Shown here piece after piece: positions 8,319 to 57,155 of a stretch of DNA of 64,000 bases (position 1 is the first letter of the stretch; each line of letters starts with the position of its first letter). A program made the translations under genes and the position numbers. The stretch lies in IMG/VR virus record IMGVR_UViG_3300026549_002453; one strand, 5' to 3'. The notes beneath the pieces are model-generated. The model searched no databases, was not told where the DNA came from, and was given only the letters and a program-made list of their open reading frames with translations. Source of the stretch: a virus. Taxonomy: Duplodnaviria > Heunggongvirae > Uroviricota > Caudoviricetes.

Positions 8319-9308
8319 GTGGAATATATGTCTGCAAGCGTAGAAAATATGTGGATTATACCTGATAATGAGGAAAAACCGATTGATGCCAGAAGTACTC
8401 GTTATGAAAGTATGCCTAGCAAAAATGTGAAGCCATTTCTGAAGTGGGCTGGAGGGAAGAGTCAGCTTCTTTCGGAGATAGAAAAATACTATCCTTTTAA
8501 TTCCGGAAAGATAACAAAGTATGCAGAGCCTTTTGTTGGTGGTGGCGCGGTGCTGTTTGATATATTAAGTAAATACAACCTAAAAGAGGTTTATATTAGC
8601 GATATAAATGCAGAACTAATCAATACCTACATAATTATACGAGACAATATTGAAGGCTTAATTAAAGAATTATGCAAAATGAGAGATGATTACATTCCGT
8701 TAGAGACAGAAGACAGAAAAACCTATTACTATGAAAAAAGAGATAGATTCAATGATTTAAAAGTTAATGGCAACGAAGAAACTAACACCGAAAAAGCTGC
8801 TCTGATGATTTTCTTAAATCGAACCTGCTTTAACGGATTGTTCCGTGTAAATATGAAAGGCCAGTTCAATGTCCCAATAGGTTCCTATAAGAATCCTCTT
8901 ATTTGCGACGAAGATAATCTTCGAGATGTCTCAGAGAAGCTTAAGAACGTAACAATTATATGTGGCGACTACCAAGAGTCGAGAGACTTTATAGATAAAA
9001 ACACCTTCGTATATTTTGATCCGCCCTATAGACCATTGACGGAAACATCAAACTTTACAGCATACACAGAAAACCTGTTTAATGATGAGGAGCAAGTTGA
9101 ATTGGCGAAATTTGTAGATGAAATGGACAAGAAGGGTGCTCGGGTAGTGGTAAGCAACTCCGACCCAAAGAATTCAAACAACCAGGATGATTTCTTTGAT
9201 GAGATATATTCAGCACACAAGATAAAAAGAGTTGAAGCAAAGAGAATGATAAATTGCAATGGCGAAGCAAGAGGGAAAATAAAAGAGCTACTCATTTCAA
9301 ATTTTTAG
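8319..9308 (+). CDS. dam: DNA adenine methyltransferase, Dam family (D12 class)
   Basis: KPFLKWAGGK motif, AEPFVGGGAV (SAM motif I) and VYFDPPY (motif IV); AGGAGG RBS. Confidence 0.9.
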   Translation: MEYMSASVENMWIIPDNEEKPIDARSTRYESMPSKNVKPFLKWAGGKSQLLSEIEKYYPFNSGKITKYAEPFVGGGAVLFDILSKYNLKEVYISDINAELINTYIIIRDNIEGLIKELCKMRDDYIPLETEDRKTYYYEKRDRFNDLKVNGNEETNTEKAALMIFLNRTCFNGLFRVNMKGQFNVPIGSYKNPLICDEDNLRDVSEKLKNVTIICGDYQESRDFIDKNTFVYFDPPYRPLTETSNFTAYTENLFNDEEQVELAKFVDEMDKKGARVVVSNSDPKNSNNQDDFFDEIYSAHKIKRVEAKRMINCNGEARGKIKELLISNF

Positions 9309-14499: not shown

Positions 14500-14943
14500 A
14501 TGTCAGAATTTAAACAAAAAGAAAAATACACTGGGGAATGGAAAGGAAACACTATTTCGTTTAATAGAGAATGGAGTAACCATAGATTTACTGATGCGGA
14601 GTGTGAGGCTCTTTTAAAAGGACATGAAATCATTATAGAGGCAACCAGTAATAAGACAGGTAAAAAATTCAGTGTAGCTGGTAGTTTAGGGGAGGGGTTT
14701 TACGAGGGCAAGAGTTTTATAAGTTTTCAACCCAACTTTGAAAAAAAGATTATACCCATTAGTTTTTGTGGGCATGTGTTTTCTAATAAAGAAAGAAAAG
14801 ATTTAGAGGATGGTAAATCTCTAATTTTAACCGACCTTAAGTCTAAAAAAGGTACTGACTTTACTGCGAGCGTGACATTCGATTCCACAGATGGCATAGA
14901 TATGAGCTTCGATAACCTACCAAATTTAGAAAAAACCAAGTAA
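14500..14943 (+). CDS. hypothetical protein
   Basis: 147-aa ORF, well spaced from the upstream stop. Confidence 0.45.
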   Translation: MSEFKQKEKYTGEWKGNTISFNREWSNHRFTDAECEALLKGHEIIIEATSNKTGKKFSVAGSLGEGFYEGKSFISFQPNFEKKIIPISFCGHVFSNKERKDLEDGKSLILTDLKSKKGTDFTASVTFDSTDGIDMSFDNLPNLEKTK

Positions 14944-19713: not shown

Positions 19714-21189
19714 ATGAAAGAAGTAAAAGTATTAGCAAAAGATGGTCAAGAATTAATGCCTACAACAATTGAAAAAGCGAATAAACTAATATCAAAGGGA
19801 GAAGCAGAGATAGTAGAAACTTCCCCTATGACAATTAGAATACTAAAGAATACTAAAAGATATAAGCAAGAAACTCTCGGCGATAGTTATGATTTGCCTA
19901 TAACTTATGAGGAAAAGATTCCTATTGGTGTAACATACATAAATGAAGAAGTAGATTTATATTGGTCTCTTAAAAAATACTCTGAGGAACATTGGAATGT
20001 AGTATACTCGAATACTGTACTTGTTGCTGATGATGACCTTAATCCGAGCTTCTTCATTCATAACACTATTGCGAGTCTTAATTATACACCTAACATTAGT
20101 ATGATATATACAAGTAAACTAAATGGTAGTAAATATGCTTTTGCGAGAAATGTAAGAGGTTCTGCAGGTAATGATGTATCCATAGCGGACACCTCAGAAA
20201 GAGTGAAAAGGCTAATGATGGACCGCTTTAAGTTGCTTGAACAACATCAGGTTAATAGAATTGAACTCTTAAACGGAACGGTACTTACTAACTATAAAAT
20301 GTTTAATAGAGAATGGAATTGGGATGCATTATTTACTGTTGTGGATAATACAGACGCGCCTGAAAAGGCTTTCGGTAAAATGGGTACAGTGTGGCACAAC
20401 AGAAATTATTATACTATAACAATTAAAGAAATGTATGAAAAACTAAATAATGGCGAAATAAAGTACTTTACACTTGCAACACCAGTAAAAGGGGTACCAA
20501 GGCACATATTTAAGTTTGATATTGAAAAAACAGAGGGTGAATACGCGCCCCACAAAGTCATTCTTATCATAGATGACCTCGATGAAATAATGCTTTGCGA
20601 TAATTATAAAGCGGTACATACAGTTAAAGATTCATTAAGTGCAATCGCCAGATTAGGTAGAGCTGCAGGAGTATATCTAATACTTAAGTGTCAAAGGGCA
20701 AGTGGGTCTACTGTGTCTACAGATTTATTAAATAATTGCCTAATTAAAATAAGGACAGGTAATTCTTATGTAGGTCAAGATATTTTTATGTTTGATAAAG
20801 AATTACCGCCATTAAAAGATAATAGAGCATATGTACAATTTTATGGTAGAGAAGTATATGAAATACAGTCATACAACCCTCACAATATAGAACCTTGGGA
20901 TGACGTGTTTGATATAACAAAGACATCTATTGCAGAAATTCAAGCAAACACGGGATATGCAAAAGACTTCGACTTAACAGTAAAACCAAGTAAAGAACTG
21001 TTAGATAAAATAGAGGAAAGTAAGAAAGAGTATGCAAAGTTTGTAGAAGAAACTGAGTATGTATATCTTTCAAAAGGAGAAGTAAAAGATAGATTACTAA
21101 AGAAAATAAATAGTTTGGAAAAAGAAATAAGCTCAATAAAAGAAGATATTGATATGTTGTTTTCTGAATTAGATAATATTATAGAATAG
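19714..21189 (+). CDS. FtsK/SpoIIIE-like protein with degenerate Walker A and an N-terminal PLMP-like domain
   Basis: C-terminal half matches the FtsK motor signature (ILIIDDLDE...IARLGRAAGVYLILKCQRASGSTVSTDLLNNCLIKIRTGN). The Walker A position reads GSAGNDVS, so the Lys is lost. The first ~45 aa align with the PLMP domain of the IscB at 57156. Confidence 0.65.
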   Translation: MKEVKVLAKDGQELMPTTIEKANKLISKGEAEIVETSPMTIRILKNTKRYKQETLGDSYDLPITYEEKIPIGVTYINEEVDLYWSLKKYSEEHWNVVYSNTVLVADDDLNPSFFIHNTIASLNYTPNISMIYTSKLNGSKYAFARNVRGSAGNDVSIADTSERVKRLMMDRFKLLEQHQVNRIELLNGTVLTNYKMFNREWNWDALFTVVDNTDAPEKAFGKMGTVWHNRNYYTITIKEMYEKLNNGEIKYFTLATPVKGVPRHIFKFDIEKTEGEYAPHKVILIIDDLDEIMLCDNYKAVHTVKDSLSAIARLGRAAGVYLILKCQRASGSTVSTDLLNNCLIKIRTGNSYVGQDIFMFDKELPPLKDNRAYVQFYGREVYEIQSYNPHNIEPWDDVFDITKTSIAEIQANTGYAKDFDLTVKPSKELLDKIEESKKEYAKFVEETEYVYLSKGEVKDRLLKKINSLEKEISSIKEDIDMLFSELDNIIE

Positions 21190-21247
21190 AAATACGAGTT
21201 TGGCGGTATCTCATTAAAAACCACCCAATTAAAGAAAGGATGGTTTG

Positions 21248-21955
21248 ATGAAGAAATGTGGACATAAAGGATGCAAAACAAAAATAGACGAACAGTATAG
21301 GTTTTGCTATGAACATAGAAAGGATAAGTACCAGGATACTTGTTATATCCATGGGAAGACTCTTTTTTCTGAGGGCAAATGTTTAAAATGCTTAGATATG
21401 AAGCGTCCTATATATAGAATACATAAGAGAGATAATAATTATTATTTTAATAGAAATAGAAAACCTATAGATAAAGATAGTTTTATGTATCCATATTGTA
21501 AACAACTTACGCATAAAACAATATCCTATCAAAACAGGTATATGGGAAAAATTAGTAATTCAGCTGGGATATATGGCATATTTGTAAGGGATAAAAGGAA
21601 GAAGGACCAGTTAGGTGAGTGCCTATATGTAGGTCAAGCGACCGATATTTCTAGGAGGATTAAACAGCACAAGAAGAACTTTGCGACAGCAAGTAATCAT
21701 ATAAAAGGCTTAAAAGCAAGTAGTAAGAGTAGCGTTATAGTAATACCAAAGTATAAAGTAGAAGCCAAGTACTATATGATGGCTAAAGATTATTGGTTGA
21801 AAGATTTGAAGTTTGTTTGTTTATATAGGTTTGATGATAACTTTAAGAAACTATTGCCCAGCGAACAAAAGGTTTTGCTTACGTTAGAGGAACAATTATT
21901 TATAGATATTTATTCCAGTTCACTTAACACTTTTGCAGCAAGGCCAAGTTACTAA
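21248..21955 (+). CDS. GIY-YIG nuclease-domain protein with N-terminal Cys/His zinc-binding region
   Basis: GIYGIFV...YVGQATDISRRIKQH matches the GIY-YIG core; N-terminal CGHKGC...CYEH, CYIHG, CLKC. Confidence 0.6.
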   Translation: MKKCGHKGCKTKIDEQYRFCYEHRKDKYQDTCYIHGKTLFSEGKCLKCLDMKRPIYRIHKRDNNYYFNRNRKPIDKDSFMYPYCKQLTHKTISYQNRYMGKISNSAGIYGIFVRDKRKKDQLGECLYVGQATDISRRIKQHKKNFATASNHIKGLKASSKSSVIVIPKYKVEAKYYMMAKDYWLKDLKFVCLYRFDDNFKKLLPSEQKVLLTLEEQLFIDIYSSSLNTFAARPSY

Positions 21956-22181: not shown

Positions 22182-23351
22182 ATGGAGGAAATAAAAGTGA
22201 AGCTTAACAAGGATAAAACAAAGAAAGAAAAAATCAAAAAAGAAAAACCTAAGAAAATAAAAGAAAAGCCTAAAAAAATAAAGGAGCCAAAGCAACCTAA
22301 GTTAAAAACAGAAGTTCCTAAACTAGATAAAGAAGTAACTTGGGAATATGCTCATGAGGCAGATTTAACTATAGGTGAAACTAAAATTAGTAATGTAGCT
22401 AAGGTTATTTTAATTTTACTTATTCTTGCTCTTATAGGTGCCGGTATATTTGGTTATTTAAAGAGAGATTATATTTCTGACTATATTAAACAGCCTGCTA
22501 TTGTGTTATCCACTAATGAAGTTACCCTAGAAGTAGGAGACGAGTTTGATTATAAAGACTATCTTACTGATGTCGAATATTTAGATAGATGGGCTCTTAC
22601 GTACCCAGATAATACAGAAGTGGATACAAGCAAATTAGGAGACTATACAGTACAATATAAATTGCAATCCTTGGCTAATGAAAGCTCTTCAGAGTTGGTC
22701 GTTCATATCGAGGATAGCACCCCTCCAACAATTAAATTAAAGGAAACTATGATTAAGTTAGAGCGTGGAGAACAAACTGAAAAATTTGATGCCAGTAAGT
22801 ATATCCAAGAAATAAAGGATAACTATGATAAAAAGGAAGATATTGAAGTAACGTACACAACGACGGTAGACTGGACCAGGGATACGGTCGAAATAGATTA
22901 TACTGTGGTAGATAAATCAGGAAATACTGGCACTGCAAAATTAAATATAGCAGTAACAGACCCTCCCAAGGAACCTGAAGTAGTATACGTTGAGGTTGAG
23001 GTTCCAGTTGAAACTCCTGCCCCATCAAATGATGTTTCCAGCAGCGGTTCATCCGGAGGTAACAGTGGAGGTAATACATCTAGTAGTAATACAGAACAAC
23101 CTTCTAGTGGTAACTCGGGTAACAGTAGTCCACCTCCCTCTCAAAATCATTATATAAATGGAGTGCACAACTTTTCGGTTAAGGTGGGGGATTTAAACAC
23201 ATTTACTGCTGAAGTACAAAGTGGAATTAGCTCAGATGAAACTATATCCGTGGACTATAGTTCTGTAAATCTTAGTGTACCTGGTAGTTATACTGTTACA
23301 TATTCAACAGCGCACGTGACTAAATCGGCCACGGTTACGGTTGTTGAATAA
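22182..23351 (+). CDS. type-II membrane-anchored surface protein with Ig-like (DUF5011-like) domains
   Basis: Lys-rich N-terminus, one TM helix, extracellular repeats, Ser/Gly-rich linker; paralog of 25724..26986; start may be GTG 22197. Confidence 0.55.
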   Translation: MEEIKVKLNKDKTKKEKIKKEKPKKIKEKPKKIKEPKQPKLKTEVPKLDKEVTWEYAHEADLTIGETKISNVAKVILILLILALIGAGIFGYLKRDYISDYIKQPAIVLSTNEVTLEVGDEFDYKDYLTDVEYLDRWALTYPDNTEVDTSKLGDYTVQYKLQSLANESSSELVVHIEDSTPPTIKLKETMIKLERGEQTEKFDASKYIQEIKDNYDKKEDIEVTYTTTVDWTRDTVEIDYTVVDKSGNTGTAKLNIAVTDPPKEPEVVYVEVEVPVETPAPSNDVSSSGSSGGNSGGNTSSSNTEQPSSGNSGNSSPPPSQNHYINGVHNFSVKVGDLNTFTAEVQSGISSDETISVDYSSVNLSVPGSYTVTYSTAHVTKSATVTVVE

Positions 23352-23461
23352 ATATATTTAATTACAGTACTATGGGGAGCAAAAGGAGTAGCTACCTATG
23401 TGAGATAAGAGTGCCTATATCACTCAGCCATAGTCGGTATATCTTATATAGGAGGATATTT

Positions 23462-25672
23462 ATGATAAGAAAAAATGAGTTAAAATATGTAAATTGTTTG
23501 ATTTGTGGGGAATCAAAATCTGTAACTGGACTACCGAATCATGTTAAACACAAACATGGCATACCGCCTGAAGAATACTATCTTAAATTTTTTAAAAAAG
23601 ATGATAATGATGGAAAATGTCTAACTTGTGGCAAACAGATGACGTTTAAAGGAATATTTAAGGGTTATAACAGATTTTGTAGTAATAGTTGCATAAGAAA
23701 AAATCCATCTATTATTGAAAAAACAAAACAAAATAATTTAGAAAAGTACGGTACAGAATGGGCAATATCTGCCCCTCAGACAAGAAGAAAGATTGAACAA
23801 ACTACATTAGAACATTATGGGGTTAAATGTAATTTGTCTTCTCAAAAAATAAGAGAAAATATAAAACAGACGTGTCAAGAAAAATATGGTGGAAATGCAC
23901 CCGCTTGTAATAAAGTAGTTAAAGACAAGATGATAAGTACTAATCGAGAAAGATATGGTGTCGATTTCTATAACAATATAGATAAAACACGTGAAACTAA
24001 TTTAGATAGATATGGCGTTACATGCACTTTACAGGCTAAAGAAGTAAAAGAAAAAATTAAAAAGACAAACTTAGAGAAGTATGGAGCAGAAAATGTATTT
24101 GCCTCAGAAGAAGTAAAAGAAAAAATTAAAAATACTAACATAGAAAAATATGGCTTTGAATATAGTATACAATCAAAAGAGGTTCAAAATAAATGTAGAA
24201 ATACCATGATTAAAAATCATGGAGTTGAATATACTTGGCAGTCTCCAAAATTATTTAAAAAAGTTGTTGATACTAAGATAGAAAGGTATGGACAAAACTA
24301 TAAAGTAAAAGAACGGGAAAAACAGAAAGAGACACTGCTTCAAAGGTATGGAGTAGAAAATCCTATGCAGTGTGCGGAAATTAAGGCTAAAGCAAAAAAT
24401 ACTAACATAGAAAAATATGGAGCTGAATTTTATGCACAAACAGCTGAATTTCATAAAAATAAACTGACAAAATATTGGTACAATAACGTAACCTTTGACT
24501 CTTCTTATGAGCTTTGCTTTTATAGATATTGTCTTGACCACAATATAGATATTGTTAGAAATACAGATTCATTTAAATATGTGTTTCACAATAAAACACA
24601 CTTATATTTCCCTGATTTTGTAGTAGAAGGAGAGTATGTAGAAATTAAAGGTGCCCAATTTTTTGAGGATGGGAAAATGATAAACCCATATGATAGGTCT
24701 CAGGATGCTTTTTATGAAGCTAAACATCAATGTATGATAGAGAATGGTGTAAAAATTATAACTGATTGTACAAGATATATAGAATATATTAATTCTATTG
24801 ATAAAAACTTTTTAGATAAGTGCAGTTTAAAAAGAAAATTAAACCTAGATTGTTTAGAGTGGAAAAAGTTAACAGATGGAAAACAGAGAGTAATAGATAT
24901 TGCTAAAAGGGCAACCGGTGAGGAATTTTATAAAAGAGAATTATCTTTCTGGGAGCAAAATCCAGAGCAAAGAAAGATATTATTTGAAAATAGACTAAAA
25001 TATATACATAAACAACCAAACGAACTCTCCGATTTAGAAATTCTTAGAGGGATAAGCATTTCTGGTAAGGTTAGAGCTTATTCACATTTTGACAACGCTG
25101 GAATGAAAAAATTTATAGAAAAATACAATATTCATTCAATATATGATCCCTGTGCAGGTTGGGGTGAGCGATTGATTACTTGTGCCGCATTAGGCATTGA
25201 ATATAAAGGGATAGATATAAATCCGAATGTTGTAGAAGGGCATAAAAGAATAATTAAGCACTATAATTTAGATAAAAATAAGTACCAAGTATATTGCTGT
25301 GATTCTGGTAGCCAAAGTACAGAAGATAATTTAACTAACGAATATGATGCTACATTTACTTGCCCTCCATATTGGAATGAGGAAATTTATACAGATGCAG
25401 GTGCAGAAAACTTGTCATATAAAGAGTTTTTAGACTGGTGGAAACAAGTAATCATAAATTCAAACACAGATTTATTTGCATACCAAATAAATCAAAAATA
25501 TAAAGAAGATATGAATAAGGTTTTAAAGGATTTGGGGTATGAATTCATTGAAGAAATTATCTTACCTCAAAAAAGTAGTCATTTTACAAGAGAAAAAAAT
25601 GGTGTAAATAAGAAAAAAGAGTATGAAAGTATTCAAGTTTTTAAACTACCTACAGCAAAACCTCGAGTTTAA
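23462..25672 (+). CDS. multidomain protein: zinc fingers + 11 tandem ~30-aa KYG repeats + PD-(D/E)xK nuclease-like core + N6A/N4C DNA methyltransferase
   Basis: GGAGGA RBS then ATG 23462. Two Cys/His clusters at the N-terminus. Eleven repeats of the form K.K.TN[LI]EKYG.E....S.EVKEKI. A nuclease-like core (YFPDFVVEGEYVEIKG). SAM motif I (IYDPCAGWGERL) and motif IV (FTCPPYW). Confidence 0.75.
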   Translation: MIRKNELKYVNCLICGESKSVTGLPNHVKHKHGIPPEEYYLKFFKKDDNDGKCLTCGKQMTFKGIFKGYNRFCSNSCIRKNPSIIEKTKQNNLEKYGTEWAISAPQTRRKIEQTTLEHYGVKCNLSSQKIRENIKQTCQEKYGGNAPACNKVVKDKMISTNRERYGVDFYNNIDKTRETNLDRYGVTCTLQAKEVKEKIKKTNLEKYGAENVFASEEVKEKIKNTNIEKYGFEYSIQSKEVQNKCRNTMIKNHGVEYTWQSPKLFKKVVDTKIERYGQNYKVKEREKQKETLLQRYGVENPMQCAEIKAKAKNTNIEKYGAEFYAQTAEFHKNKLTKYWYNNVTFDSSYELCFYRYCLDHNIDIVRNTDSFKYVFHNKTHLYFPDFVVEGEYVEIKGAQFFEDGKMINPYDRSQDAFYEAKHQCMIENGVKIITDCTRYIEYINSIDKNFLDKCSLKRKLNLDCLEWKKLTDGKQRVIDIAKRATGEEFYKRELSFWEQNPEQRKILFENRLKYIHKQPNELSDLEILRGISISGKVRAYSHFDNAGMKKFIEKYNIHSIYDPCAGWGERLITCAALGIEYKGIDINPNVVEGHKRIIKHYNLDKNKYQVYCCDSGSQSTEDNLTNEYDATFTCPPYWNEEIYTDAGAENLSYKEFLDWWKQVIINSNTDLFAYQINQKYKEDMNKVLKDLGYEFIEEIILPQKSSHFTREKNGVNKKKEYESIQVFKLPTAKPRV

Positions 25673-25723: not shown

Positions 25724-26986
25724 ATGGATAAATATCCCATGAACTGGAAGTATGCGGGCAAAGCTGAAGTAAATATGAAGGAAAAAAAGAGCCTTAACAT
25801 AAAAGTAATAATTTTAATATGCGTGTTGATTCTTTTTATTGTATTGGGGTCCTTAGGGTTTATATACAGACACTATATTATAGACAAGTTTACTAACCCA
25901 TACTTTGTTCTTACTACTGAGGAAACAGAGATTGAAGTAAACTCAGAGTTTGACTATTCTATATATGTAGGGGATAACTCTTGGCCAACTAGATACGAAG
26001 TGATATACCCAGACTCTTCTCAAGTAGATACCTCAAAACTAGGTGAATATAACTTAGAGTTTATATTAAAGACCGAGGCTACCGAAAATGTATCCAACCT
26101 ATTGGTGAAGGTGGTAGATACCACTCCGCCGGTTCTAGAGCTTACTGCTGAAGAAATATCATTGACTAAGGGGGAGGAAACTATGGAATTTAACCCCGAG
26201 ACCTACGTTAAATCTATGACTGATAATTATGATAAGAGGGACAACCTAACTCTAAATTATTCTAATATTTTAGATTGGAGTGGTAGTGAGGTATGGGTGG
26301 ATTACACCTTGGCTGACACTTCAGGCAACAATAGTAAGGCTAAACTTAAAGTACTAGTACTAGACGAAGAAAAGGACTTTGGGACAGTAGTGGTTGAATA
26401 TGTAAACACTGAAGGAACACCTATAATTGAGGATGGTGTGGTATTTAAAGCAAAGATAGGCACTCCCTATAAAACAGAGCAAAAAGATATTCCTGGATAC
26501 ACTTTTAAAGAATTGGGTAAAAATTCTGCCCCAAAAGAAGGTGAAATAGAGAGAGGAGAACTGAAGGTTGTTTACGTGTATGAAAAGGTTGAGGAAGAAA
26601 AAAAGGAAGAGGTTCCTAAGGTAGAGGAAAGCAAGCCCAAGGAGGATAACCCTAGTACTGAAGGAGAGTCAACAAGCGCCTCTCAAGACTCCCAAAATGT
26701 TCAAAATTCCCAAGAATCATCCTCATCTACAGAACAAAGTAGTTCTTCTTCAACATCCGCCGCACCCAGAGGCCATTATATAGATGTAGATAATATTACT
26801 GTAAAAAAAGGAACTTCCTTAGACCAGTTTATATCTATCCTACAATCTAGTATAAAGTCAGATGAAGAGGTACAAGTACTGTTCGGTGCAGTGTCTCAAG
26901 AGTCACTTAATACTCCTGGCAAGTATACTATAACTTGCCAATCTGCCAATGTGACCAAGGATGTCATTGTAACTGTCACCAACTAG
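25724..26986 (+). CDS. membrane-anchored surface protein with Ig-like and MucBP-like domains
   Basis: AGGAGG RBS; one TM helix; region collinear with 22182..23351; VVVEYVNTEGTPI...GYTF...VVYVYEK fits a MucBP domain; Ser-rich linker. Confidence 0.6.
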   Translation: MDKYPMNWKYAGKAEVNMKEKKSLNIKVIILICVLILFIVLGSLGFIYRHYIIDKFTNPYFVLTTEETEIEVNSEFDYSIYVGDNSWPTRYEVIYPDSSQVDTSKLGEYNLEFILKTEATENVSNLLVKVVDTTPPVLELTAEEISLTKGEETMEFNPETYVKSMTDNYDKRDNLTLNYSNILDWSGSEVWVDYTLADTSGNNSKAKLKVLVLDEEKDFGTVVVEYVNTEGTPIIEDGVVFKAKIGTPYKTEQKDIPGYTFKELGKNSAPKEGEIERGELKVVYVYEKVEEEKKEEVPKVEESKPKEDNPSTEGESTSASQDSQNVQNSQESSSSTEQSSSSSTSAAPRGHYIDVDNITVKKGTSLDQFISILQSSIKSDEEVQVLFGAVSQESLNTPGKYTITCQSANVTKDVIVTVTN

Positions 26987-30918: not shown

Positions 30919-31014
30919 GAATGTAAATGTGGAGAATGGAGGTCTTAGATCCCATTCTCCCTACTGACTAACTATAAGTATGGATAAACCTAGCGGAAAG
31001 GAAAATTGATTGTT

Positions 31015-33840
31015 ATGCAATGGAAAAAGTATGTATGTTTGCTATTAAGTGTTATAATAGCAACCATGCCTATAATTTCTTTAGCAGAGGATGAGAAAAA
31101 TATAGCTGAACCAACTACAGCAGAAGAAACAGTTTCAAATGAAGAAACGAAAACTGAACCTCCAACTGTTAAAGAAACAGAGGAAGTTAAAGAAGAAACT
31201 TCAAATGAACAAGTGAATAATGAAGAAGCTAAAACTGAAAACGAGACTACAAAAGCAGAAGAACAAAAGAAATTAGAGGAACAGGAAGCCCAACAAAGGG
31301 CTGAGGAGGAAGCGAAACAAAAAGCCGACGCAGAAGCCAAAAAGAAAGCTGAAGAAGCACAGAAAAAAGCAGAAGAGGAAAAGGCTAAAGCTGAGGCGGA
31401 TAAAAAAGCAGAGGAAGAAGCTAAAAAGAAAGAAGAACAGCAAAAAGCTGAGGAAGCTAGTGCTACTCCTAATATAGAATCTTCTACAGTAGTTGTTACA
31501 AGTAATAATGGGGATACATCAGCATATAGATATGATGAAGCACAATACAACCCAGAAGTAGGAACAACTTTAAGATACCCTCTTTCAATGCAAGGGACTC
31601 TTACGTCATATTTTGGTAAAAGAACACCGGTTGATACCCCAATGGGGCAGAGTTCATCCGACCATATGGGAATTGATATTGCCATATCAGCTGGAACTCC
31701 AGTAATAGCAGCTGAAACAGGTGTTATTATAAGAGCATCTTGGTATGGCGGGTATGGCAATTGTATTGATATCGAACATAAAGATGGTATGGTTACTAGA
31801 TATGGGCATTTGTCTGAAATTAATGTTAAAGTTGGAGATAATGTGCTTAGAGGTCAACTTATTGGCAAAGTAGGGTCAACTGGGAGAAGTAGCGCTCCGC
31901 ATTTACATTTTGAAGTTATGCCGGACGGTAGAACACCAGTAAATCCACTTCCATTTTTAGAAGAGCCTGCTACAGATAGAGATACTCAATATTCTAATGT
32001 AAAATTTCTATTAGTAAAGAAAGATAATCTAGAAACCATTATGGACAATCTTATTTTATTTCTAGAGTCAGAAATTGAGGCAGATGCAAATCTTGAGGAT
32101 AATACCAAAATAGATGAAATATCTTTAGCAGATGAAAAAAAATCTATTAAAGAAGCAGAAAATAAAGAAATTCTAGATGAAAGTACATCCAGATATCTAG
32201 GTGAAGACATAGTAGCTTATGGCAAAATATATGCTTCTATTGGAAATGATAATTCTTCCAATTATACCATTACCACACCGTATGTTCTTGGTGGACATGA
32301 TTTAGATGTAGCAGTAGATTGTGGCGGGTTTGTAACAGAAGTATATAAACATTTTGGATATGATATAAAGTTTGGAAATGTTGGCTCTATTTATAATGAA
32401 GTTATGAATAATCATAATGGACAAGTTATATCTGAAAATTTAGGTACAACATATAACAAGGCTGAAATAGATAAATGGCTTCCTGGAGATATTATCTTCT
32501 TTAGTGATTCTGAGTGGGCATGGTCTCACGTAGCTTTATATGCCGGAAACGGACAAATCGTACACTCTAAGTGGGAAAAATCAGGAGTAATATTAGAAAA
32601 TCTATATTCTAACAACCATGTGTATAGTGGAAAAAGTGTTAAATATGTAGTGAGAATACTCACTCCAGAAGATAAAGTTCAAAATAACTTTAAGAAAACT
32701 GAAAAATCTGTATCAACAAAGTCATATGCGGGCCGTGCAGTTAATACAGGCGATATCCTATTCCAGCTAAATGAAAGATTACCGATAGAAATCAAAGATG
32801 GAAAAACACTCATAGATATTTCTAAGTATTATAATACTGGTTTACTAAAAGATGAACCAATTCTTATACAAACAAAAGAGGGTTATAATGTTGATTTTAG
32901 AATTAATAACACAGTGGAAGATATAAATGACCCAGAATTACATGAAATTAAAAACGAGTTACTTAGAAAGTATGAATTAGTTATTGATGAAGAAGTACCT
33001 CAATCTGAAATTCAACTTATCATCCCAAGTGAAAATATATCTAAAACTAAGGTAATCACTCGAATTAATAGTGAATTTGATACCTTACCATCAGATATAT
33101 ATGAATTTAATCCACTGTTTGGAATGAATCTTAACTTAGGCATAAAAGATATTACTAAAGAAAATATTACTGTTTCAGTAAATGGTAAAGAATTGCCACA
33201 TAATTATTATAGTTATAATAATGAAGTATTAACTATAAATTATTCAGCATTGTACGTAGAGACCCTTGAAATCAAAGTTACAAAAGAAAAGCATCAGCTA
33301 GAAGATTTACCAATTATCAGCAGTGTACATGGTATATCAACATGGCTCAACATAGAGGGAGATATTGATTTGATTGGACTTAATTCTTCTATAGAGGGAT
33401 GCTATTTTGTAAACTCTATGCTTGATAATAATATTCAAAGTGAGTATAGAGTACTTCCGTACAATAGGTACAACTTTACTGTAAATAAGGAAAACAATAT
33501 AGAGTCTAACCTACTTATAGATAATGAATTGGCCGACGGATATATAAGTATTCCAATTAAACAATTCTTGTCAGACTTCAAGTATACTTCTAAACTTGAC
33601 CCTCTAACTTATAGTGATGAGTCAATGTTACAAGAACTTAAGATTAATGATAAGAATTATAATATCTTTATATATGGTGAGCAGCTTAATTTGTTAGATA
33701 ATATCGACCTTGAGGATGGAGAAAAAGAGGTAAACTTCAAGGTACTAGACTATTATGAACAAGGTAGTGACAATTATTTCATAGTTTCCTATGAAGTAGA
33801 AGGGATAGGTGGATACTTTGGCATTAACATCAAAGATTAA
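31015..33840 (+). CDS. secreted bifunctional peptidoglycan hydrolase: M23 (LytM) peptidase + NlpC/P60 domain with a long E/K/A-rich linker
   Basis: Signal peptide; KAEE-type charged repeats; M23 motifs HMGIDIA...YGHL...SAPHLHFEV; NlpC/P60 Cys (VDCGGFV) and His (WSHVALYAG...IVHS). Confidence 0.85.
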   Translation: MQWKKYVCLLLSVIIATMPIISLAEDEKNIAEPTTAEETVSNEETKTEPPTVKETEEVKEETSNEQVNNEEAKTENETTKAEEQKKLEEQEAQQRAEEEAKQKADAEAKKKAEEAQKKAEEEKAKAEADKKAEEEAKKKEEQQKAEEASATPNIESSTVVVTSNNGDTSAYRYDEAQYNPEVGTTLRYPLSMQGTLTSYFGKRTPVDTPMGQSSSDHMGIDIAISAGTPVIAAETGVIIRASWYGGYGNCIDIEHKDGMVTRYGHLSEINVKVGDNVLRGQLIGKVGSTGRSSAPHLHFEVMPDGRTPVNPLPFLEEPATDRDTQYSNVKFLLVKKDNLETIMDNLILFLESEIEADANLEDNTKIDEISLADEKKSIKEAENKEILDESTSRYLGEDIVAYGKIYASIGNDNSSNYTITTPYVLGGHDLDVAVDCGGFVTEVYKHFGYDIKFGNVGSIYNEVMNNHNGQVISENLGTTYNKAEIDKWLPGDIIFFSDSEWAWSHVALYAGNGQIVHSKWEKSGVILENLYSNNHVYSGKSVKYVVRILTPEDKVQNNFKKTEKSVSTKSYAGRAVNTGDILFQLNERLPIEIKDGKTLIDISKYYNTGLLKDEPILIQTKEGYNVDFRINNTVEDINDPELHEIKNELLRKYELVIDEEVPQSEIQLIIPSENISKTKVITRINSEFDTLPSDIYEFNPLFGMNLNLGIKDITKENITVSVNGKELPHNYYSYNNEVLTINYSALYVETLEIKVTKEKHQLEDLPIISSVHGISTWLNIEGDIDLIGLNSSIEGCYFVNSMLDNNIQSEYRVLPYNRYNFTVNKENNIESNLLIDNELADGYISIPIKQFLSDFKYTSKLDPLTYSDESMLQELKINDKNYNIFIYGEQLNLLDNIDLEDGEKEVNFKVLDYYEQGSDNYFIVSYEVEGIGGYFGINIKD

Positions 33841-37670: not shown

Positions 37671-39089
37671 ATGAAAAGAAAACTTATTAGTCTAATGATG
37701 TGTATGGCATTAGTATTCGGCATGGCAGTTCCTACTTTCGCTGATACTTTTAACTATACACCAATCAATGGCCCAGCAGCAGGCGCAGATGATGGTTTTG
37801 AATTTGAGAAGGATTTAGTAATTCCTGCTGATGCTGAAGTGCCAGAAGCAACATTTAGTTATTCTGTAGCGCCAGGAACAGCTGTAGACGCTGGAACAGG
37901 TACAGCTAAAGTGCTTGCTGGCGTGGGTACTCCTACTATTGAGGATGTAGAGTATGCCGCAGGTGAAACAGCAAGTGCTGACATGACTCTCACGACTGAG
38001 GGTGAAAACAAGGTAGCTACAAAGAAGGCTCAAGTAGATTTTTCCGCTTGTGAATTCACAGAGCCTGGTATCTATCGTTACATCGTTACTGAAAGTGGCG
38101 ACAATCAAGGTATTACAAATGACCCAATTCTCACAAGAACACTTGATGTATATGTAGAAAATGATGAAGATGCAACTGGTTCTCCTGCTGTTCTTTATAC
38201 ACAGGAAGATGTAGATGCATGGGTAGCAGCTAATCCTGACGAAGACCCAGCAGATTGCCCATTTGCAGCAGGTGATGTTAAGACTCCTGTGGTTCCTGCT
38301 GGTAGAGGTCTTAAGGTAACTGGTTATGTATTCTATGAAGGAACAAAGACTGATGCTCCTAGTACAACAGCTACTGAAGCAACAGGAAAGAGTGAAGGAT
38401 ACAGAAATACTTATGAAACAGCTAACCTTGAATTTGGTAAAGAAGTAAAAGGTAACTTTGGTTCTCTTGACCAGTATTTCGAATTCACTGTAGTTCTTGG
38501 CAATATGCCTGAAGGCACTGTTCTTAATGTAGACCTTACAGATGCTGACGCAACTCCGCATGCAAGTGATGCTAACGAAGTAACTACTGCGGCTAACCCA
38601 ACTAAGTTAACAGTTGGCGCTGATGGAACTATTACTCAGAAGTTCTATATTCATGATGGTCAATACATTATAATTAAGGGACTTCCTGTAGATGCAACAT
38701 ATGCTATTACAGAAGAAGCACACGATTATACGAGTGCAGAAGGTATTGAAGCTGCTGATAATGATGAGAGCGTAGCACATATAGATGCAGTGTCTGGAAC
38801 AATTGGTTCTAAGGAAGGCGAAATTACAGGATATAAGAACACCCAAACTGAAGAAGAAATCACAGTTGAAGAATATGAAGAACTTTCTGACGAAGGAAAG
38901 CTCGGATATGAACCTGTAAGAGGAACAGATGACCAGAATGTAAAGACAGGTTATACTAATACAAAGGACGTAGTAACTCCTACAGGTATTGCTAACGCTC
39001 TTACAACATTTGGTCCTGCAGTTCTTATTGCTCTTGTAGCAGTTGCAGGTATTGTAGTTTTCTCTAGAAAAAAGAGAACTAATGAGTAA
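37671..39089 (+). CDS. pilin-like surface protein (SpaA/isopeptide-type) with a C-terminal sorting signal
   Basis: Signal peptide; pilin-like PGIYRYIVTE box; codon usage more GC-rich than the neighbours, as for a highly expressed gene; C-terminal VTPTG motif, TM helix and RKKR tail. Confidence 0.55.
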   Translation: MKRKLISLMMCMALVFGMAVPTFADTFNYTPINGPAAGADDGFEFEKDLVIPADAEVPEATFSYSVAPGTAVDAGTGTAKVLAGVGTPTIEDVEYAAGETASADMTLTTEGENKVATKKAQVDFSACEFTEPGIYRYIVTESGDNQGITNDPILTRTLDVYVENDEDATGSPAVLYTQEDVDAWVAANPDEDPADCPFAAGDVKTPVVPAGRGLKVTGYVFYEGTKTDAPSTTATEATGKSEGYRNTYETANLEFGKEVKGNFGSLDQYFEFTVVLGNMPEGTVLNVDLTDADATPHASDANEVTTAANPTKLTVGADGTITQKFYIHDGQYIIIKGLPVDATYAITEEAHDYTSAEGIEAADNDESVAHIDAVSGTIGSKEGEITGYKNTQTEEEITVEEYEELSDEGKLGYEPVRGTDDQNVKTGYTNTKDVVTPTGIANALTTFGPAVLIALVAVAGIVVFSRKKRTNE

Positions 39090-39204
39090 GTGTGAACATT
39101 AGGTACTCTGGCCTAAAGAGTTTAAATAATGCAGTCCGCCGACGGTTAGCCTAATTTCATATATGAGTTTAGCAGTATCTCATTAAAAACTGCCTCCCCT
39201 TTCT

Positions 39205-39275
39205 GGCGGGATGATGCAATGGTAGCAAAAGAGACTCATTCTCTCTTAGTTTTGGTTCAAGTCCAAATCCCGCAA
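39205..39275 (+). tRNA. tRNA-Met/Ile(CAT)-like element, atypical
   Basis: Hand-folded cloverleaf: acceptor stem GGCGGGA/TCCCGCA (one mismatch), D-arm with GG, anticodon stem AGAGA/TCTCT with loop CTCATTC (anticodon CAT but T at position 37), T-arm TTTGG-TTCAAGT-CCAAA; no encoded CCA. Confidence 0.4.
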
Positions 39276-39355
39276 GACTTATGTGTATACAACCTTGACG
39301 TGGTATAAGTCCTTTAAACTAATAGTATACAATTATTTTAAAAAGGAGAAGTATA

Positions 39356-41387: not shown

Positions 41388-44300
41388 ATGAAGAAACTAC
41401 TAAGTTTACTATTATGTTTAACAATAGTATTTTCTTCTATGCCAATAGGCGTAATTGCAGAGGATACTCAAAGCGAGGAATCCTCTGCTTTTTCTCTTTC
41501 TGAACATCAAGAGGAATCTATGGAAGAAGAGACTGAAGAATCTGTAGAAGAAAACCAGGAAGAGAGTATCGAGGAAGAAGAACCTCAAGAGGAGGTAATT
41601 GAAGACACTATTCAGGAAGAGGCAGAAGAAAAACTTCCAGAAGAAAATATTCAAGTTAATCAAAATAGCGAAAATGATAAAATTGAAGAGGAAAATGAAC
41701 AAATTGAACTTGTTCAATTAGTAGAAAGTCAAGTAATAGACAATATCAAGATTACTGTAAATGGAGCTTTTGCTGAAGAAGGAACTCTTTCTATTCAAAA
41801 AGTAGAAAGTCAAGAACTTTCTGAAAATAATATAGCAGAAAGCCATAGTTTTGATATTAAAGTACTAAATAGCGACAATCAAGAAATTCAGCCTATAGAT
41901 AAAATTCATGTAAGTTTTGAATTCGAGTCTATTAGTGAGAATGTTGACATAGAAGTATATCACGAAGAAGAACAGTTAGAAGCAGAAACAAAAGAAAATG
42001 TTGTTACTGTGGAAAGTGATGGTTTTTCTATTTATACAGTGGAATTTACTTACAACGATAAAGAATATGTATTGGAAGGCGATACTTATGTAAAACTTTC
42101 TGATATTCTTGATTTTGTAGGTCTTGCAGGAGAAGTAGAATCTTGGGAAATTTCTAATAATGAGTTATTTACAGTCTTAAAAGGAGATGAATATGGAATT
42201 TCTTATGATATAGAGTATATTGATGAAATAGAATATGCTACTCCTATAGATAATCCTGATGGAAATATTCTTTATATGGCCGCTCTTCAAATGTTTGATA
42301 CGGAAGAATGGCTTGATATAACTATAGACGGAATTACATATCATATTATCGTAACAGATGATGCTTATGTTAATGGTCAGTCGCAAAATAAAATAACAGA
42401 TAACAGAGTAGTGCAAGGCGGTAATGAAACTAACTTTACTGCTACTATGCCTTTAGCAACTATCTTTATTGACGAAGATATAGTTAATATGGATGCGTAT
42501 AAGTTACTTCCGCCAACTATAAAAACACAAGAACAGTACGATGTGTATGTTGCAGAACACGGAGAAAATCCTTCATGGAATGTCGGGGATATCGATTATG
42601 ACAACCCCGAAAATACAGGAAAAATGGTGGCAAGACTTGTTTACGATACAACACAAACAGGTGCAAGAACTGGTATGAAAGTTAATACTTCGCCTGATGC
42701 TGGAGATGCATATGGTCAACTTTACTTTGATTTTGCAGATGGTGATTGGGATAAAGGAACTACTGCAAATAACCATGTAATAAATACTTGGAATGGTCCT
42801 GTTGTTGAATATAGGTTCATAAATGCTGCTGAAAGATTTAATACAGAAACTCAACAGTATGAAAGAATGGATGTCATTATTACATATTCTAATGTTAATA
42901 TTAGTATGCAATATAATTTTAACATGGATAATTATAGTAAGTTAACAAAATATGATATCTTAGATGCAAATAAGATTCAACCAAAATTATTTGCAAGCTC
43001 TGATTTAGGCGGAAACGCTAATGATAGAACAGGTCTTAAATTAGATGTCAATATTCAAGTAGTAGATAAGAATGATAATCGTATTCCTGGTTCATACTAT
43101 TTTCCATTGGTTGACGCGGATATTGGTAGAAGTGGAGCTTTTGGAAATCTTTATAAAGGAACAAATACTGAAAATAACTATTATTCAGAACAGTTCGTTC
43201 TTTTAGATAATTATGGTCAACCTACATCTGCTGGTGAATGGGAACAAAAAATTTGGATTCCTGGTGGAGACTATGATAAAACTAAAGCGGCTTCACAAAC
43301 AAGTAATATGCCGTACTTATCTAATATAGATAGTATTAATGGTAACTTGAGAATTAAACCTGGTGCAAGTTATAGTAGTATACCAGCTAATGGATATGAA
43401 CATCCAGTGACAGGAAACACTGGTAGAGACGAAGATTTTTACACAGGTTTTGCTACACTTGCTAATAACACTGACGGCGGAGTTAAGTTCCGTTATTGGG
43501 GAAATTCTGCATATAGAGCTACCCCAAGCGGTTCCGGTACGGTAACATCTTATGTCCTTGCAGGAACACAAAGAATTAACCATAAATTAGATGCTTCTTC
43601 TGATGAAGGAGGCACAATTTATACTACAACCACAGGTAACTCCGACGGTTCACTTTCGGGTGGCGAGCTTATGGGTAATAATTTAGTTAATTCTCCTCAC
43701 CAAATTTCTACTGCTACGGGTCAGCATACTACATACACAATGACACCAAAAGGTGGTTATAGAATTAAGAGTGTATATGTAAAGAGCGGAGATATTGATG
43801 TTCTCGAACAAGTAGAAGGTGGTAACGGAGCAACTTATAATGTTCCTATCAGCGATTTAACAAGCAAGGGTCATGGTATTTATACCTACACATTTACTGA
43901 TATTCAAGAAGATAGCTCCATCCATGTGGAGTGGGAAAAGACAGAGTTAAGTGTAACTAAAAATATAACTCCAGCAGACCCAAATGAAACCCACAAATTT
44001 AATTTCCAAATTAGACTATGGGATACAAGTACAGAAGACTCTATTTGGAGAGTGAGGGCAAGAAAATATAATGGTACTCTCATTAGGGATTATGGAATAG
44101 AAGACGGAACTCCTTATTATATGACTTATAGTGAGTCCCATAATGAGGAAGGTGAAATCGAGAGGTATACTGAGGTACCAGCTAGTGAAATCACAGATGA
44201 GACTAATCCTTCTGAGAATGGTTGGTATGAATCTGTGAGATATTTAGCACAAGCTGCAACACAAAATTTATATATGACAAGATATTTCTTAACAGAGGAT

Positions 44301-50416: not shown

Positions 50417-51640
50417 TTGTTAGTACAAAGAACTGAACAACACATCATAGATAGACAGTCCAAGTGGTACAAAATGCTTAAGGAATTGTGTTATAAAGCT
50501 AAAAACACTTATAATCAAGGCAACTATATTATCAGGCAAGAATTTATTAAAAATGGTAAGTGGTTAAGGTATAATGACGTAGATAAACTGCTTAAGTATG
50601 ACCCTCAAAATGATAACTATTACTCTTGGTACGCTCATGCAAATCAACAAGTGCTTAGAAGACTTGATAAAAACTGGAAAAGCTTCTTCGCAAGTATAAA
50701 AGATTGGAAGAAAAATCCCTCTAAGTATAACGGCGTGCCAAAATTACCTAAGTATCTTAAAAAAGATGGTCTAACTGAATGGGGCATTACGGCGGGTGAA
50801 CTTAGGTTAGATTATACCGAAGGATTAATATATTTTCCTAAAGTGATGCAAGGTTTTAATATTCAACCACAATTTATCTATGATGAAAGATTTGTTCAAT
50901 TTAATCATTGTAGAATTGTTCCTAAGAATGATAGAATTATTGTCGAATTAATTTATACTATCTCAATCCCTGATTTTGTTAAAGAGCAAGGCTCTATAGG
51001 AAGTATTGACCTTGGTTTAGATAACTTTGTAACCTTTGTTGATAATCTTGGAAATCGTCCAATTATCATCAACGGTAAAGGTCTAAAGTCCTGTAATCAA
51101 TACTATAACAAGTTAATCGCTCAAATAAAATCAGAGCTTGATAAAAACGGTAATTCAGGATATAGTCACTTGCTATATTCAATTACAAACAAGCGAAATG
51201 ATAAAATTAAGCATTTCATGGATAAAGCATCTAAATATATTGTTGAAAATTGTCTTGATTTAGGAATAAAAACTATCGTGATTGGTAAAAATGATAATCA
51301 AAAACAAAATAGCAGAATGAAAAACTTTGTGCAAATTCCATATAACTTGTTTATTCAAAAACTTGCGTATAAGTGTCAAGAAGTAGGAATTGAACTAATT
51401 CTTACTGAAGAAAGTTATACAAGTGGTACAAGTTTTCTTGATGATGAACTACCAACTAAAGAAAATTATAATATTTCAAGAAGAGTAAAACGAGGGTTAT
51501 TCAAAAGCAATGACGGCAAGTTAATAAACGCAGATGTAAACGCTGCATACCAGACAATAAAAAAGGTATTCTCCGATGCTGTAAAGCCAGGAGATATAGG
51601 GTTAGTAATGAACCCAGTTCGGGTAAACTTTAGTTTCTGA
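50417..51640 (+). CDS. tnpB: TnpB-like (IS200/IS605 OrfB family) protein lacking the C-terminal zinc finger
   Basis: RuvC-I GSIDLGLDNF; YTSG segment; RuvC-III NADVNAAYQ. There are no CxxC pairs where the zinc finger should be. The residue expected for the RuvC-II Glu aligns to IVIGKND, so a Gly or Lys may sit there. GGAGG RBS, TTG start. Confidence 0.75.
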   Translation: MLVQRTEQHIIDRQSKWYKMLKELCYKAKNTYNQGNYIIRQEFIKNGKWLRYNDVDKLLKYDPQNDNYYSWYAHANQQVLRRLDKNWKSFFASIKDWKKNPSKYNGVPKLPKYLKKDGLTEWGITAGELRLDYTEGLIYFPKVMQGFNIQPQFIYDERFVQFNHCRIVPKNDRIIVELIYTISIPDFVKEQGSIGSIDLGLDNFVTFVDNLGNRPIIINGKGLKSCNQYYNKLIAQIKSELDKNGNSGYSHLLYSITNKRNDKIKHFMDKASKYIVENCLDLGIKTIVIGKNDNQKQNSRMKNFVQIPYNLFIQKLAYKCQEVGIELILTEESYTSGTSFLDDELPTKENYNISRRVKRGLFKSNDGKLINADVNAAYQTIKKVFSDAVKPGDIGLVMNPVRVNFSF

Positions 51641-56539: not shown

Positions 56540-56809
56540 ATGAAAACATTAAAAGAAGATTGGCAAGCTCAACAAGATTGTGACCCTAAGGCTCACGGAG
56601 TAAATCCATTAGAAATTAAAGGAGTAACTATAACTCTCACCCATTCGGATAGCGGCGGATTTATGATTGGGTTTAATGTACCCGGCAGAGGTACTTGGTC
56701 AGAGCCTGTGTCTGATTATAAAGATTTTTATGATGCTCTTGGACACATATTTGTAGAAGAGGGAGGTATAATGGATAACTTATTGTGTAAAGGAACTCTA
56801 TTAGAGTGA
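56540..56809 (+). CDS. hypothetical small protein
   Basis: AAGGAG RBS. Confidence 0.4.
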   Translation: MKTLKEDWQAQQDCDPKAHGVNPLEIKGVTITLTHSDSGGFMIGFNVPGRGTWSEPVSDYKDFYDALGHIFVEEGGIMDNLLCKGTLLE

Positions 56810-57155
56810 ACGAGTGCACACCCTGAAAGTGCCACTTTCACAAGCATAGCTTGAAGTGTATGCACCTTCGGGTACAAGACGTTCACAAGACTTAGGTTGG
56901 AGAAATCCTACCTACGTTAAATAGGTTATGACACCCATGGATGTTGGGCAAGACCATTGCTCTGTCGATTAGTTTTAAGTTGAATGCTAGTGTACAGATA
57001 GTTCTGTGAACTAATTATGTAAGCCTATTTAACATTGTCGATGCCAAGTCCGACACTTATTATGGTAATATTAGTAAGTTAGGCACTACAGTCATTAGAA
57101 GTACTGGTTTATAGCGTAAAACTTCTAAAATATCTACAGAAAGGAGCTAAAGCGT
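56810..57155 (+). ncRNA. candidate IscB omega RNA / structured 5' leader
   Basis: 346-nt non-coding stretch, more GC-rich than the surroundings, directly upstream of iscB. Contains several local hairpins, e.g. GAAAGTG-C-CACTTTC and ACC-TTCG-GGT (a UUCG tetraloop). IscB omega RNAs lie 5' of iscB. Confidence 0.5.

Follow-up and report, generated by a model that had tools for sequence, protein, structure and literature searches.

The closest described relatives of the gene reported here are the Hef-like homing endonucleases of phages. F-LimVIII was classed as a "Hef-like" free-standing homing endonuclease (PMC3296691), and Taylor et al. assigned the Hef type to the Vsr-like family to which I-Bth0305I belongs (PMC3239194). 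In the usual view, a homing endonuclease does not cut the genome that carries it, the target having been destroyed by the insertion itself or by a polymorphism close by, whereas restriction enzymes use a partner methylase. We analysed a stretch of 64,000 nucleotides (the window in what follows) from the IMG/VR record IMGVR_UViG_3300026549_002453, assigned to the Caudoviricetes, in which a gene on the plus strand (23462..25672) encodes a single protein with zinc (Zn) modules, tandem KYG repeats, a nuclease domain and, at its C-terminus, an amino-methyltransferase (MTase). Judged from sequence, such fusions form a widespread, conserved and large uncharacterised family whose modules are shuffled among sub-lineages; we tentatively propose that the protein could be part homing endonuclease, part restriction-modification (R-M) enzyme.

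The open reading frame (ORF) is preceded by a ribosome-binding site AGGAGG (23450..23455, plus strand), 6 nt before the ATG at 23462. A longer ORF is possible from 23372; homologues, however, begin at the Met of 23462. A first-pass annotation, made from the DNA letters and the translated ORFs only, had delimited this ORF correctly but gave it 737 aa, where the span holds 736 aa and the stop codon. It had also distinguished four modules—Cys/His clusters, repeats, a nuclease-like core and an MTase—and all four are present. Their order from the N-terminus is two Zn modules, eleven repeats, the nuclease, a helical region and a compact MTase, with the motif TCPPY, closing the protein. An Rfam scan detected no intron or other RNA element close to the gene; promoter- and terminator-like sites around it are not more frequent than in shuffled sequence, so that the boundaries of the transcription unit cannot be called.

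The N-terminal half falls in a catalogued family. It matches Pfam DUF7487 (PF24308) at 163.8 bits for a cut-off of 27 (E=7.2e-48), in three stretches of which the best covers aa 220-401, and it shows the tandem 23-aa K...T..EKYG framework of this family; two PHROG groups labelled "homing endonuclease" match it as well (phrog_12131, 5e-33; phrog_3339, 7e-32). By tblastn against 50,697 phage records, 118 records were matched (94 in another tblastn), always by the N-terminal half only. Megaphages have the matching sequence in many copies: Lak-A1 in 13-18 places, one uncultured 462-kb phage in up to 25. For Dickeya phage LIMEstone1 the match lies in F-LimVIII, which is free-standing and located between the genes of the tail tube and the tail sheath. 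In its translation, ...EKYGV... repeats like those of the window protein come before a Vsr-like nuclease (..EFNGLYWH..); this Vsr-like C-terminal module is the part annotated "Hef" or "Hef-like" in T4-like, Campylobacter and RaK2-like phages. The family as a whole therefore has the free-standing, sporadic and multi-copy distribution of homing endonucleases in phages, the window itself holding a single DUF7487 gene. Only annotation ties the KYG family to the Hef of phage U5, which has been studied experimentally, and we regard the KYG array as a putative DNA-binding appendage found in a subset of Hef-like homing endonucleases. The first-pass annotation had taken the repeats and the combination of domains as unrecognisable; this view is not supported, given the DUF7487 score, the PHROG matches and the presence of the array in Hef-like enzymes of cultured phages. 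As to whether the repeats belong to a well-known family of defined function, the answer is divided: although catalogued, and labelled homing endonuclease in annotations, the family has a Pfam entry of unknown function.

Two Cys/His clusters had been announced ahead of the repeats and they are found at C12/C15/H27/H30/H32 and C53/C56/C73/C77. The first (23495..23557, plus strand) is C2H2-like, with a weak ROS/MucR-like Pfam match, and is modelled by AlphaFold2 (AF2) as a beta-hairpin and a helix. The second (23618..23692, plus strand) is a C4 zinc ribbon with weak zinc-ribbon/FCS Pfam matches, whose cysteines C53, C56 and C77 do not vary among 44 homologues (alignment A3). The array which follows (23696..24436, plus strand) comprises eleven tandem repeats of consensus ..S.EvKeKiK.TNlEKYGvE...; this number had been counted correctly, but the period is 23 aa and not the 30 or so first proposed, two copies having 19-20 aa. 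The repeats are anchored by [KRNH][YH]G tripeptides at aa 94, 117, 140, 163, 182, 205, 228, 251, 274, 294 and 317, all within aa 94-320; the fusion protein contains 12 such tripeptides, where 20,000 shuffles never gave more than 6. Tandem Repeats Finder detected no DNA repeat matching the protein repeats: the array is visible at the protein level only, and for this reason is old and diverged, not the product of a recent expansion.

In a logo of 398 repeats from the family, K-10 is kept at 89%, Y-1 at 96% and G0 at 97%, with a modal spacing of 23 aa; T-6 is fixed there by the search pattern itself. The framework fixed across repeats is K-10, T-6, K/R-2, Y-1 and G0, and what varies inside a repeat lies mostly in the loop and in the first turn of the helix. 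The number of repeats per protein varies in the family from 3 to 10 by a strict repeat pattern. In the AF2 model of aa 1-463, of mean predicted local distance difference test (pLDDT) 90.9, each repeat forms a 15-residue helix and a short turn, with a pLDDT of about 90 over the array; the predicted template modelling score (pTM) is low, 0.41, which fits an extended array. The structure prediction called for earlier thus delivers helix-turn units but no relative in the PDB, where a structure search with the modelled array gave no match, and comparison with the TALE, PUF and NUMOD families gave no match of sequence or structure either. The repeat region has 50 K/R for 34 D/E, a net charge of +16. 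This charge, the location of the array where homing endonucleases have their DNA-binding part and the variable copy number make it plausible that the repeats are DNA-binding modules, as had been supposed; the conserved basic/Thr/Tyr-Gly framework, combined with variable positions in the loop and at the helix start, suggests one DNA contact unit per repeat.

After the repeats, AF2 predicts an alpha/beta domain at aa 338-433, which corresponds to a PD-(D/E)xK nuclease resembling T7 endonuclease I (24467..24781, plus strand; E350, D385, E394, K396). Its core motifs are FDSSYE(350)...YFPD(385)F...VE(394)IK(396)G, and the E...(P)D...(D/E)xK residues lie on the alpha-beta-beta-beta-alpha-beta core of the superfamily. 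The profile built from 44 homologues finds T7 endonuclease I (1m0d, E=4.4e-4), with FdSswE, YfPDF and iEiKG in the alignment; these correspond to the catalytic E20, D55, E65 and K67 of the T7 enzyme. D385 is invariant; E350, E394 and K396 are kept in at least 90% of the A3 sequences, and the whole tetrad is intact in the 15 PD-ExK-type fusions inspected, out of 15. The D...E.K core noticed in the first reading of the sequence is thus both present and conserved among homologues. A Vsr-like catalytic domain (..D..E.(D/N)G..WH..), as in I-Bth0305I and Hef, was also considered and rejected, the nuclease of the window being the T7-endonuclease-I-like PD...ExK variant.

The MTase module, of about 270 aa, starts with a helical region (24782..25096, plus strand; AF2 helices with pLDDT >90) in which NRLKY, at aa 510-514, is the probable motif X; the NRLKY region occurs also in stand-alone MTase homologues, N71, R72 and Y75 of alignment A2 being nearly invariant. 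The class I Rossmann amino-MTase proper (25097..25669, plus strand) is indicated by AF2, Foldseek, profiles and invariant residues. The S-adenosylmethionine-binding motif I, DPCAGWG (aa 562-568; 25145-25165), is placed on the Rossmann fold and precedes motif IV, FTCPPYW (aa 632-638; 25355-25375), as had been annotated, with the acidic end of beta-2 (GIDIN, 25208-25222) between them, all on the plus strand. In 24 full-length homologues D562, G566, R570, D585, C634, P636 and Y637 are invariant, and motifs I and IV, TCPPY included, are invariant across 146 representatives. The AF2 model of aa 440-736 (pLDDT 91.4, pTM 0.88) has the Rossmann MTase after the helices. Its best Foldseek matches are the (D/N)PP(Y/F) amino-MTases aTrm11, METTL5 and TrmM, the probability to class I MTases being 1.00. 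Against sequences of the PDB, the profile finds aTrm11 (1.4e-6), the DNA N4-cytosine MTase 8s9n (1.5e-5), DpnA and M.MboIIA; further matches are phrog_498, a DNA MTase (7e-10), and TIGR01177 (3.8e-9), the best NCBIfam match though sub-threshold. With a pLDDT of 91, a Rossmann fold and invariant residues, the motifs are genuine, a point on which the first-pass annotation had allowed for doubt.

Motif IV deserves attention: compared with the usual (D/N/S)-P-P-(Y/F/W), the MTase has T-C-P-P-Y, with a Cys in the first position, outside the classical residues. Distant relatives have T-S-P-P-Y, many of them with N-termini that look ParB-like by eye, and from them the Cys of TCPPY is taken to stand in the Ser/Asp/Asn position. 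No target-recognition domain is identifiable in the MTase, nor any insertion large enough for one. Some homologues carry precomputed Pfam matches to N6_N4_Mtase (PF01555) or N6_Mtase (PF02384). The MTase belongs to a clade of putative DNA MTases from phages and mobile elements, and DNA is its likely substrate, given the fusion partners described below.

Full-length homologues of the fusion are many, with 25-49% identity over 85-98% coverage. An exhaustive search of 1.84 billion cluster representatives with a hidden Markov model of the MTase module returned 8,831 of them at E<=1e-3, 5,015 at E<=1e-10 and 594 at E<=1e-30. The module is C-terminal in all of the best 150 matches of the MTase clade (150/150), most of these proteins having 450-1127 aa. 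The combination, in which the first-pass annotation recognised no type I-IV R-M architecture, prevails in a large family known from metagenomes. A Pfam census of fusion partners, made on 73 sampled representatives of the MTase clade, gives DUF7487 in 46, DUF4379 and DUF723 in 10 each, CapR in 2, and LAGLIDADG, DUF559 and the restriction endonuclease family MTES_1575 in 1 each; helix-turn-helix (HTH) families have 1-3 members each. DUF723 and CapR are Zn-finger DNA-binding domains of T5orf172 homing endonucleases according to Barth et al. (PMC10448857), a homing-endonuclease-type group to which we would add DUF4379, a probable treble-clef zinc finger in Pfam. Other nuclease partners appear in individual loci. 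Two IMG/VR proteins devoid of KYG repeats have the TCPPY MTase fused to a LAGLIDADG enzyme (L052:4741-6687; LAGLIDADG_3, 4.9e-8) or to an HNH endonuclease (L060:5137-6465; 4e-7), and L013 joins this MTase module to a DUF559/Vsr-like nuclease. Counted over the fetched loci, fusions make up 36 of the close MTase relatives, against 3 adjacent and 20 lone copies; for the distant TSPPY relatives these numbers are 1, 2 and 50. Several contigs have a nuclease ORF which directly abuts the MTase ORF.

Two of these loci illustrate how the partnership may vary. On a 112-kb gut metagenome contig (L003:979-8531) a stand-alone MTase of 277 aa (P0130) lies among three DUF723+DUF7487 nuclease genes: two DUF7487 genes just upstream of it and the third downstream, past a 152-aa ORF, beside a VirD4-type coupling protein of a type IV secretion system (T4SS). 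By its gene content, L003 has an unfused version of the nuclease-MTase partnership, in a conjugation-like context. On a 532,570-bp contig (L005:3500-7968) two fusion paralogues, P0009 of 699 aa and P0007 of 655 aa, both Vsr-like, stand in tandem. The closest homologue of the window protein, P0002 (49% identity), is in L001, immediately preceded by an FtsK fragment that comes after two further DUF7487 genes. Between the window and the loci of the closest homologues, the fusion gene is the only shared gene at E<1e-8, and this absence of shared neighbours fits a horizontal movement of the fusion gene.

The two catalytic domains of the window protein point to different origins. Its nuclease is 50-65% identical to those of the PD-ExK/"GFxGR-MTase" lineage and about 20% to those of the Vsr/"GWGER-MTase" lineage. 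Its MTase is 26-30% identical to the first lineage and 40-67% to the second, and closest to P0007, P0008, P0009 and P0011 (60-67%). By these identities both the window protein and P0002 are chimeras of the two lineages, which associate a PD-ExK nuclease with a Vsr-associated, GWGER-type MTase, with a breakpoint near aa 440.

The surroundings of the gene are those of an element carrying several selfish genes. The fusion gene is bracketed, as had been noticed at once, by paralogous membrane proteins: upstream, a single-pass membrane/surface protein with Ig-like domains (22182..23351, plus strand) and, downstream, a surface protein with a MucBP domain (25724..26986, plus strand; ribosome-binding site AAAGGAGG ahead of the ATG at 25724). 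They are 39% identical over 220 aa (E=5e-55) and each has one N-terminal transmembrane segment. A second homing-endonuclease-like gene (21245..21955, plus strand), probably free-standing, lies 1.5 kb upstream of the fusion; it has a Cys-rich N-terminus and a weak GIY-YIG match (2.8e-4, 21.5 bits for a cut-off of 22.6). Ahead of it, at 19714-21189, is an FtsK/SpoIIIE-like ORF whose match to the FtsK domain is limited to the C-terminal half of that domain, and whose first 45 aa or so resemble the N-terminus of the IscB-like protein described below (RRXRR, E=1.2e-7; BLASTP 40% over 42 aa). Selfish nuclease genes seem to cluster downstream of this FtsK-like gene; since an FtsK fragment also precedes the fusion gene in L001, the region of the FtsK-like gene may be an insertion hotspot for them.

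Elsewhere in the window, an apparently complete IscB-type element occupies 56806-58439: a HEARO RNA (RF02033, 56806-57053, 83.9 bits for a gathering score of 83) is directly followed, at 57156-58439, by the gene of a 427-aa RRXRR + HNH protein. A TnpB-like gene (50417-51640; OrfB_IS605 and Cas12f1-like TNB domain) is the second selfish element of the RNA-guided-nuclease type. At 8319-9308 is a D12-class (Dam-like) N6-adenine DNA MTase (E=6e-68), so that the element has at least two DNA MTases. A surface protein of 2,362 aa with six DUF7601 stretches and a DUF5979 is encoded at 41388-48476 and a 472-aa relative of it at 37671-39089; a tRNA-Met gene (39204-39276) lies between these adhesin-like genes.

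In its gene content the element is mixed. A protein identical to that of the window (P0001) is present in a public collection, on a contig of 253,880 bp which represents the host element. The element has a GC content of about 0.33 and all its genes on one strand. Its conjugation-like genes comprise the FtsK-like one, an M23+NlpC/P60 hydrolase (31006-33840), a DUF3945/Toprim_Crpt protein (14500-14943) and giant adhesins; its phage-like genes comprise a UvsX-like RecA (59834-61027), about 30% identical to phage UvsX-like recombinases, and the tRNA-Met. A megablast search of the 6-kb region against plasmids gave nothing similar, and a scan of IMG/VR with the full protein gave one distant locus.

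On these grounds we consider that the protein might be a one-chain hybrid of a homing endonuclease and an R-M enzyme, in which an array-directed nuclease is combined with an MTase protecting the element's own DNA; we give this reading slightly less than an even chance. The basic Zn and repeat array would bind a long DNA site and place both catalytic domains. The nuclease would cut unmodified copies of this site in competing or naive genomes, leading to homing, exclusion or gene conversion, and the fused MTase would modify adenine-N6 or cytosine-N4 within this site, or beside it, where the element itself carries it; self-immunity would come from methylation and not from disruption of the target. 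A broader proposal, which we hold to be somewhat doubtful, is that the TCPPY MTase module is a portable self-immunity domain for homing endonucleases, defining a new class of single-chain homing R-M enzymes. It would have been captured mainly by DUF7487 nucleases, PD-ExK and Vsr-like alike, and occasionally by LAGLIDADG or HNH enzymes, while the 23-aa array would offer about one DNA contact unit per repeat and one long site for both cutting and methylation.

Several observations weigh against the hybrid. The fusion protein has no Pfam match at E<=1 to the curated DNA-MTase models (PF01555, PF02384 etc.), the solved relatives of its MTase include tRNA and rRNA MTases (aTrm11, METTL5, TrmM), which leaves some probability to an RNA substrate, and its motif IV begins with a Cys where D, N or S is classical. 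Only one DUF7487 gene is present in the window. Metagenomes were scanned twice, first with the surface protein encoded upstream, then with the fusion protein itself, and neither scan revealed an allele without the gene or a near-identical contig; as no empty-site allele appeared there or in IMG/VR, no target site could be deduced. About one third of the close MTase relatives are alone, with no adjoining nuclease; these, and the single MTase among three nucleases of L003, fit better with a general-purpose MTase than with a site-matched one. Finally, the signals being mixed, it may be that the element is no phage but a conjugative plasmid. Whether it is one or the other matters for the choice between homing and anti-restriction: if the host element is a plasmid, an orphan anti-restriction MTase becomes an obvious alternative.

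This alternative, the main rival although we find it rather unlikely, would make the MTase a cargo of orphan type, with a short or low specificity, guarding the element from host restriction, and the target of the nuclease would have no relation with it. The fusion would then serve co-inheritance only: the benefit brought by the MTase would help the selfish gene to persist, and methylation would exert no control on the nuclease. The small size of the module and the lack of a recognisable target-recognition domain are what such a cargo would show, as is its occurrence alone or with many unrelated N-terminal domains, plain HTH included, or ringed, in L003, by three different DUF7487 nucleases; the swapping of nuclease and MTase sub-types suggests, too, that the two functions are independent. 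Conjugation-type elements often carry orphan MTases, and conjugation-like genes are found in the element, as is the T4SS coupling protein in L003. On the other hand adjacency would be enough for co-inheritance, so that the near-constant C-terminal fusion across hundreds of clusters is left unexplained, as are the frequent nuclease partners of several unrelated folds; moreover the distant TSPPY relatives are essentially never fused to DUF7487.

A conventional single-chain R-M enzyme like those of Type IIC/IIG, devoted to defending the element or its host cell from foreign DNA, recognising a short site through the repeat array as a novel specificity domain and not engaged in homing, would also unite a nuclease and an MTase with both active sites conserved, and the MTase does match weakly, at aa 559-693, the mad2 model of PADLOC, a methylation-associated defence MTase (3.1e-8). 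We see it as quite improbable: the order and types of domains differ, with neither a gamma-class NPPY MTase nor a C-terminal target-recognition domain; the N-terminal family is annotated as homing endonuclease and occurs sporadically, in 13-25 places per phage genome; the eleven repeats and two Zn modules suggest a long site; and the tandem fusions of L005 and the nuclease clusters of L001 and L003 resemble an accumulation of homing endonuclease genes. Membership of Type IIG/IIC was likewise rejected for want of an N6_Mtase match and of a C-terminal target-recognition domain, the compact TCPPY MTase ending the protein, and the domain order and types agree with the first-pass view that this is not a canonical Type I-IV R-M architecture. 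A PADLOC defence system was also tried and rejected, with the local mad2 match only; in four other proteins of the window, among them the nearby upstream GIY-YIG and FtsK-like ORFs, PADLOC found no mads match except a marginal mad8 on an AAA protein 11 kb away. Least probable of all, in our opinion, is that one catalytic domain has been misjudged, the nuclease being an inactive DNA-binding relic which targets the MTase, or the MTase acting on RNA (by a tRNA m2G- or m6A-type reaction, for instance) or on protein. The RNA amino-MTases at the top of the structural matches, TIGR01177 as best NCBIfam match and the non-canonical Cys of motif IV would be in line with it. But the nuclease tetrad is maintained in the 15 fusions and in at least 90% of the A3 sequences, the MTase is fused to DNA nucleases and to domains that bind DNA, some homologues have N6_N4_Mtase or N6_Mtase matches, the MTase profile also matches DNA N4C and N6A MTases, and the TSPPY relatives are fusions of an MTase with a domain that is ParB-like by eye, typical of phage DNA MTases.

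If the hybrid reading is true, an abundant family of homing-nuclease/methylase fusions would blur the divide between homing and restriction, and would offer a testable route from selfish nucleases to R-M systems, or the reverse. It would also account for hundreds of 50%-identity clusters of unannotated proteins on gut or environmental contigs of phages or plasmids. If each repeat reads DNA, the KYG array becomes a candidate for a new modular DNA-recognition scaffold and, should its code be readable, for a programmable DNA-targeting scaffold already bearing a nuclease and a methylase. If instead the MTase is a generic anti-restriction cargo, the family would be a more ordinary case of hitch-hiking by a homing gene. 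In the literature, of which our coverage is incomplete, we found no description of DUF7487 or of natural fusions between a homing endonuclease and an MTase. The novelty lies in the combination of known kinds: DUF7487 and PD-(D/E)xK nucleases are catalogued, their fusion to the MTase is uncharacterised.

Compared with known systems, the protein is closest in its N-terminal half to the Hef-like KYG enzymes (F-LimVIII, the "Hef" of Campylobacter phages CP220/CP21, and DUF7487 in general), with which it shares a Zn-ribbon N-terminus, the 23-aa ..T..EKYG.. repeats and a nuclease of restriction-endonuclease fold; as a DUF7487 family, these enzymes are multi-copy and sporadic in large phages. It departs from them by its T7-endonuclease-I-like PD...ExK nuclease, where F-LimVIII and other Hef types have the Vsr-like one, and by its MTase, which is absent from the matched cultured-phage homologues. 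The order E...PD...ExK and the core fold of its nuclease are those of T7 endonuclease I and other PD-(D/E)xK nucleases (TnsA, VRR-NUC, Vsr, I-Bth0305I). Its MTase presumably has the motif I/IV chemistry of the orphan TSPPY amino-MTases of phages (PF01555-like N4C/N6A MTases and ParB-like-MTase fusions) and occurs, like them, in phages and mobile elements. It differs from them by the lack of an insertion resembling a target-recognition domain, by the Cys in place of Ser/Asp/Asn and by its situation, mostly as the C-terminal part of nuclease fusions; its motif I precedes motif IV, while the beta-class of PF01555 has IV before I. The short tandem helical repeats in variable copy number, with a nuclease attached, recall the TAL effectors and the NUMOD3-type minor-groove helices of I-TevI-like enzymes. 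Lastly, Type IIC/IIG enzymes (MmeI, BcgI-like) and the engineered Eco29kI R-M fusion (PMC3039593) also unite a nuclease and an amino-MTase in one polypeptide, and the common logic of Type IIC/IIG is presumed to be one DNA-recognition element serving both activities; in the protein of the window this recognition would presumably be performed by the N-terminal Zn and repeat array, and the nuclease is of a family associated with homing endonucleases.

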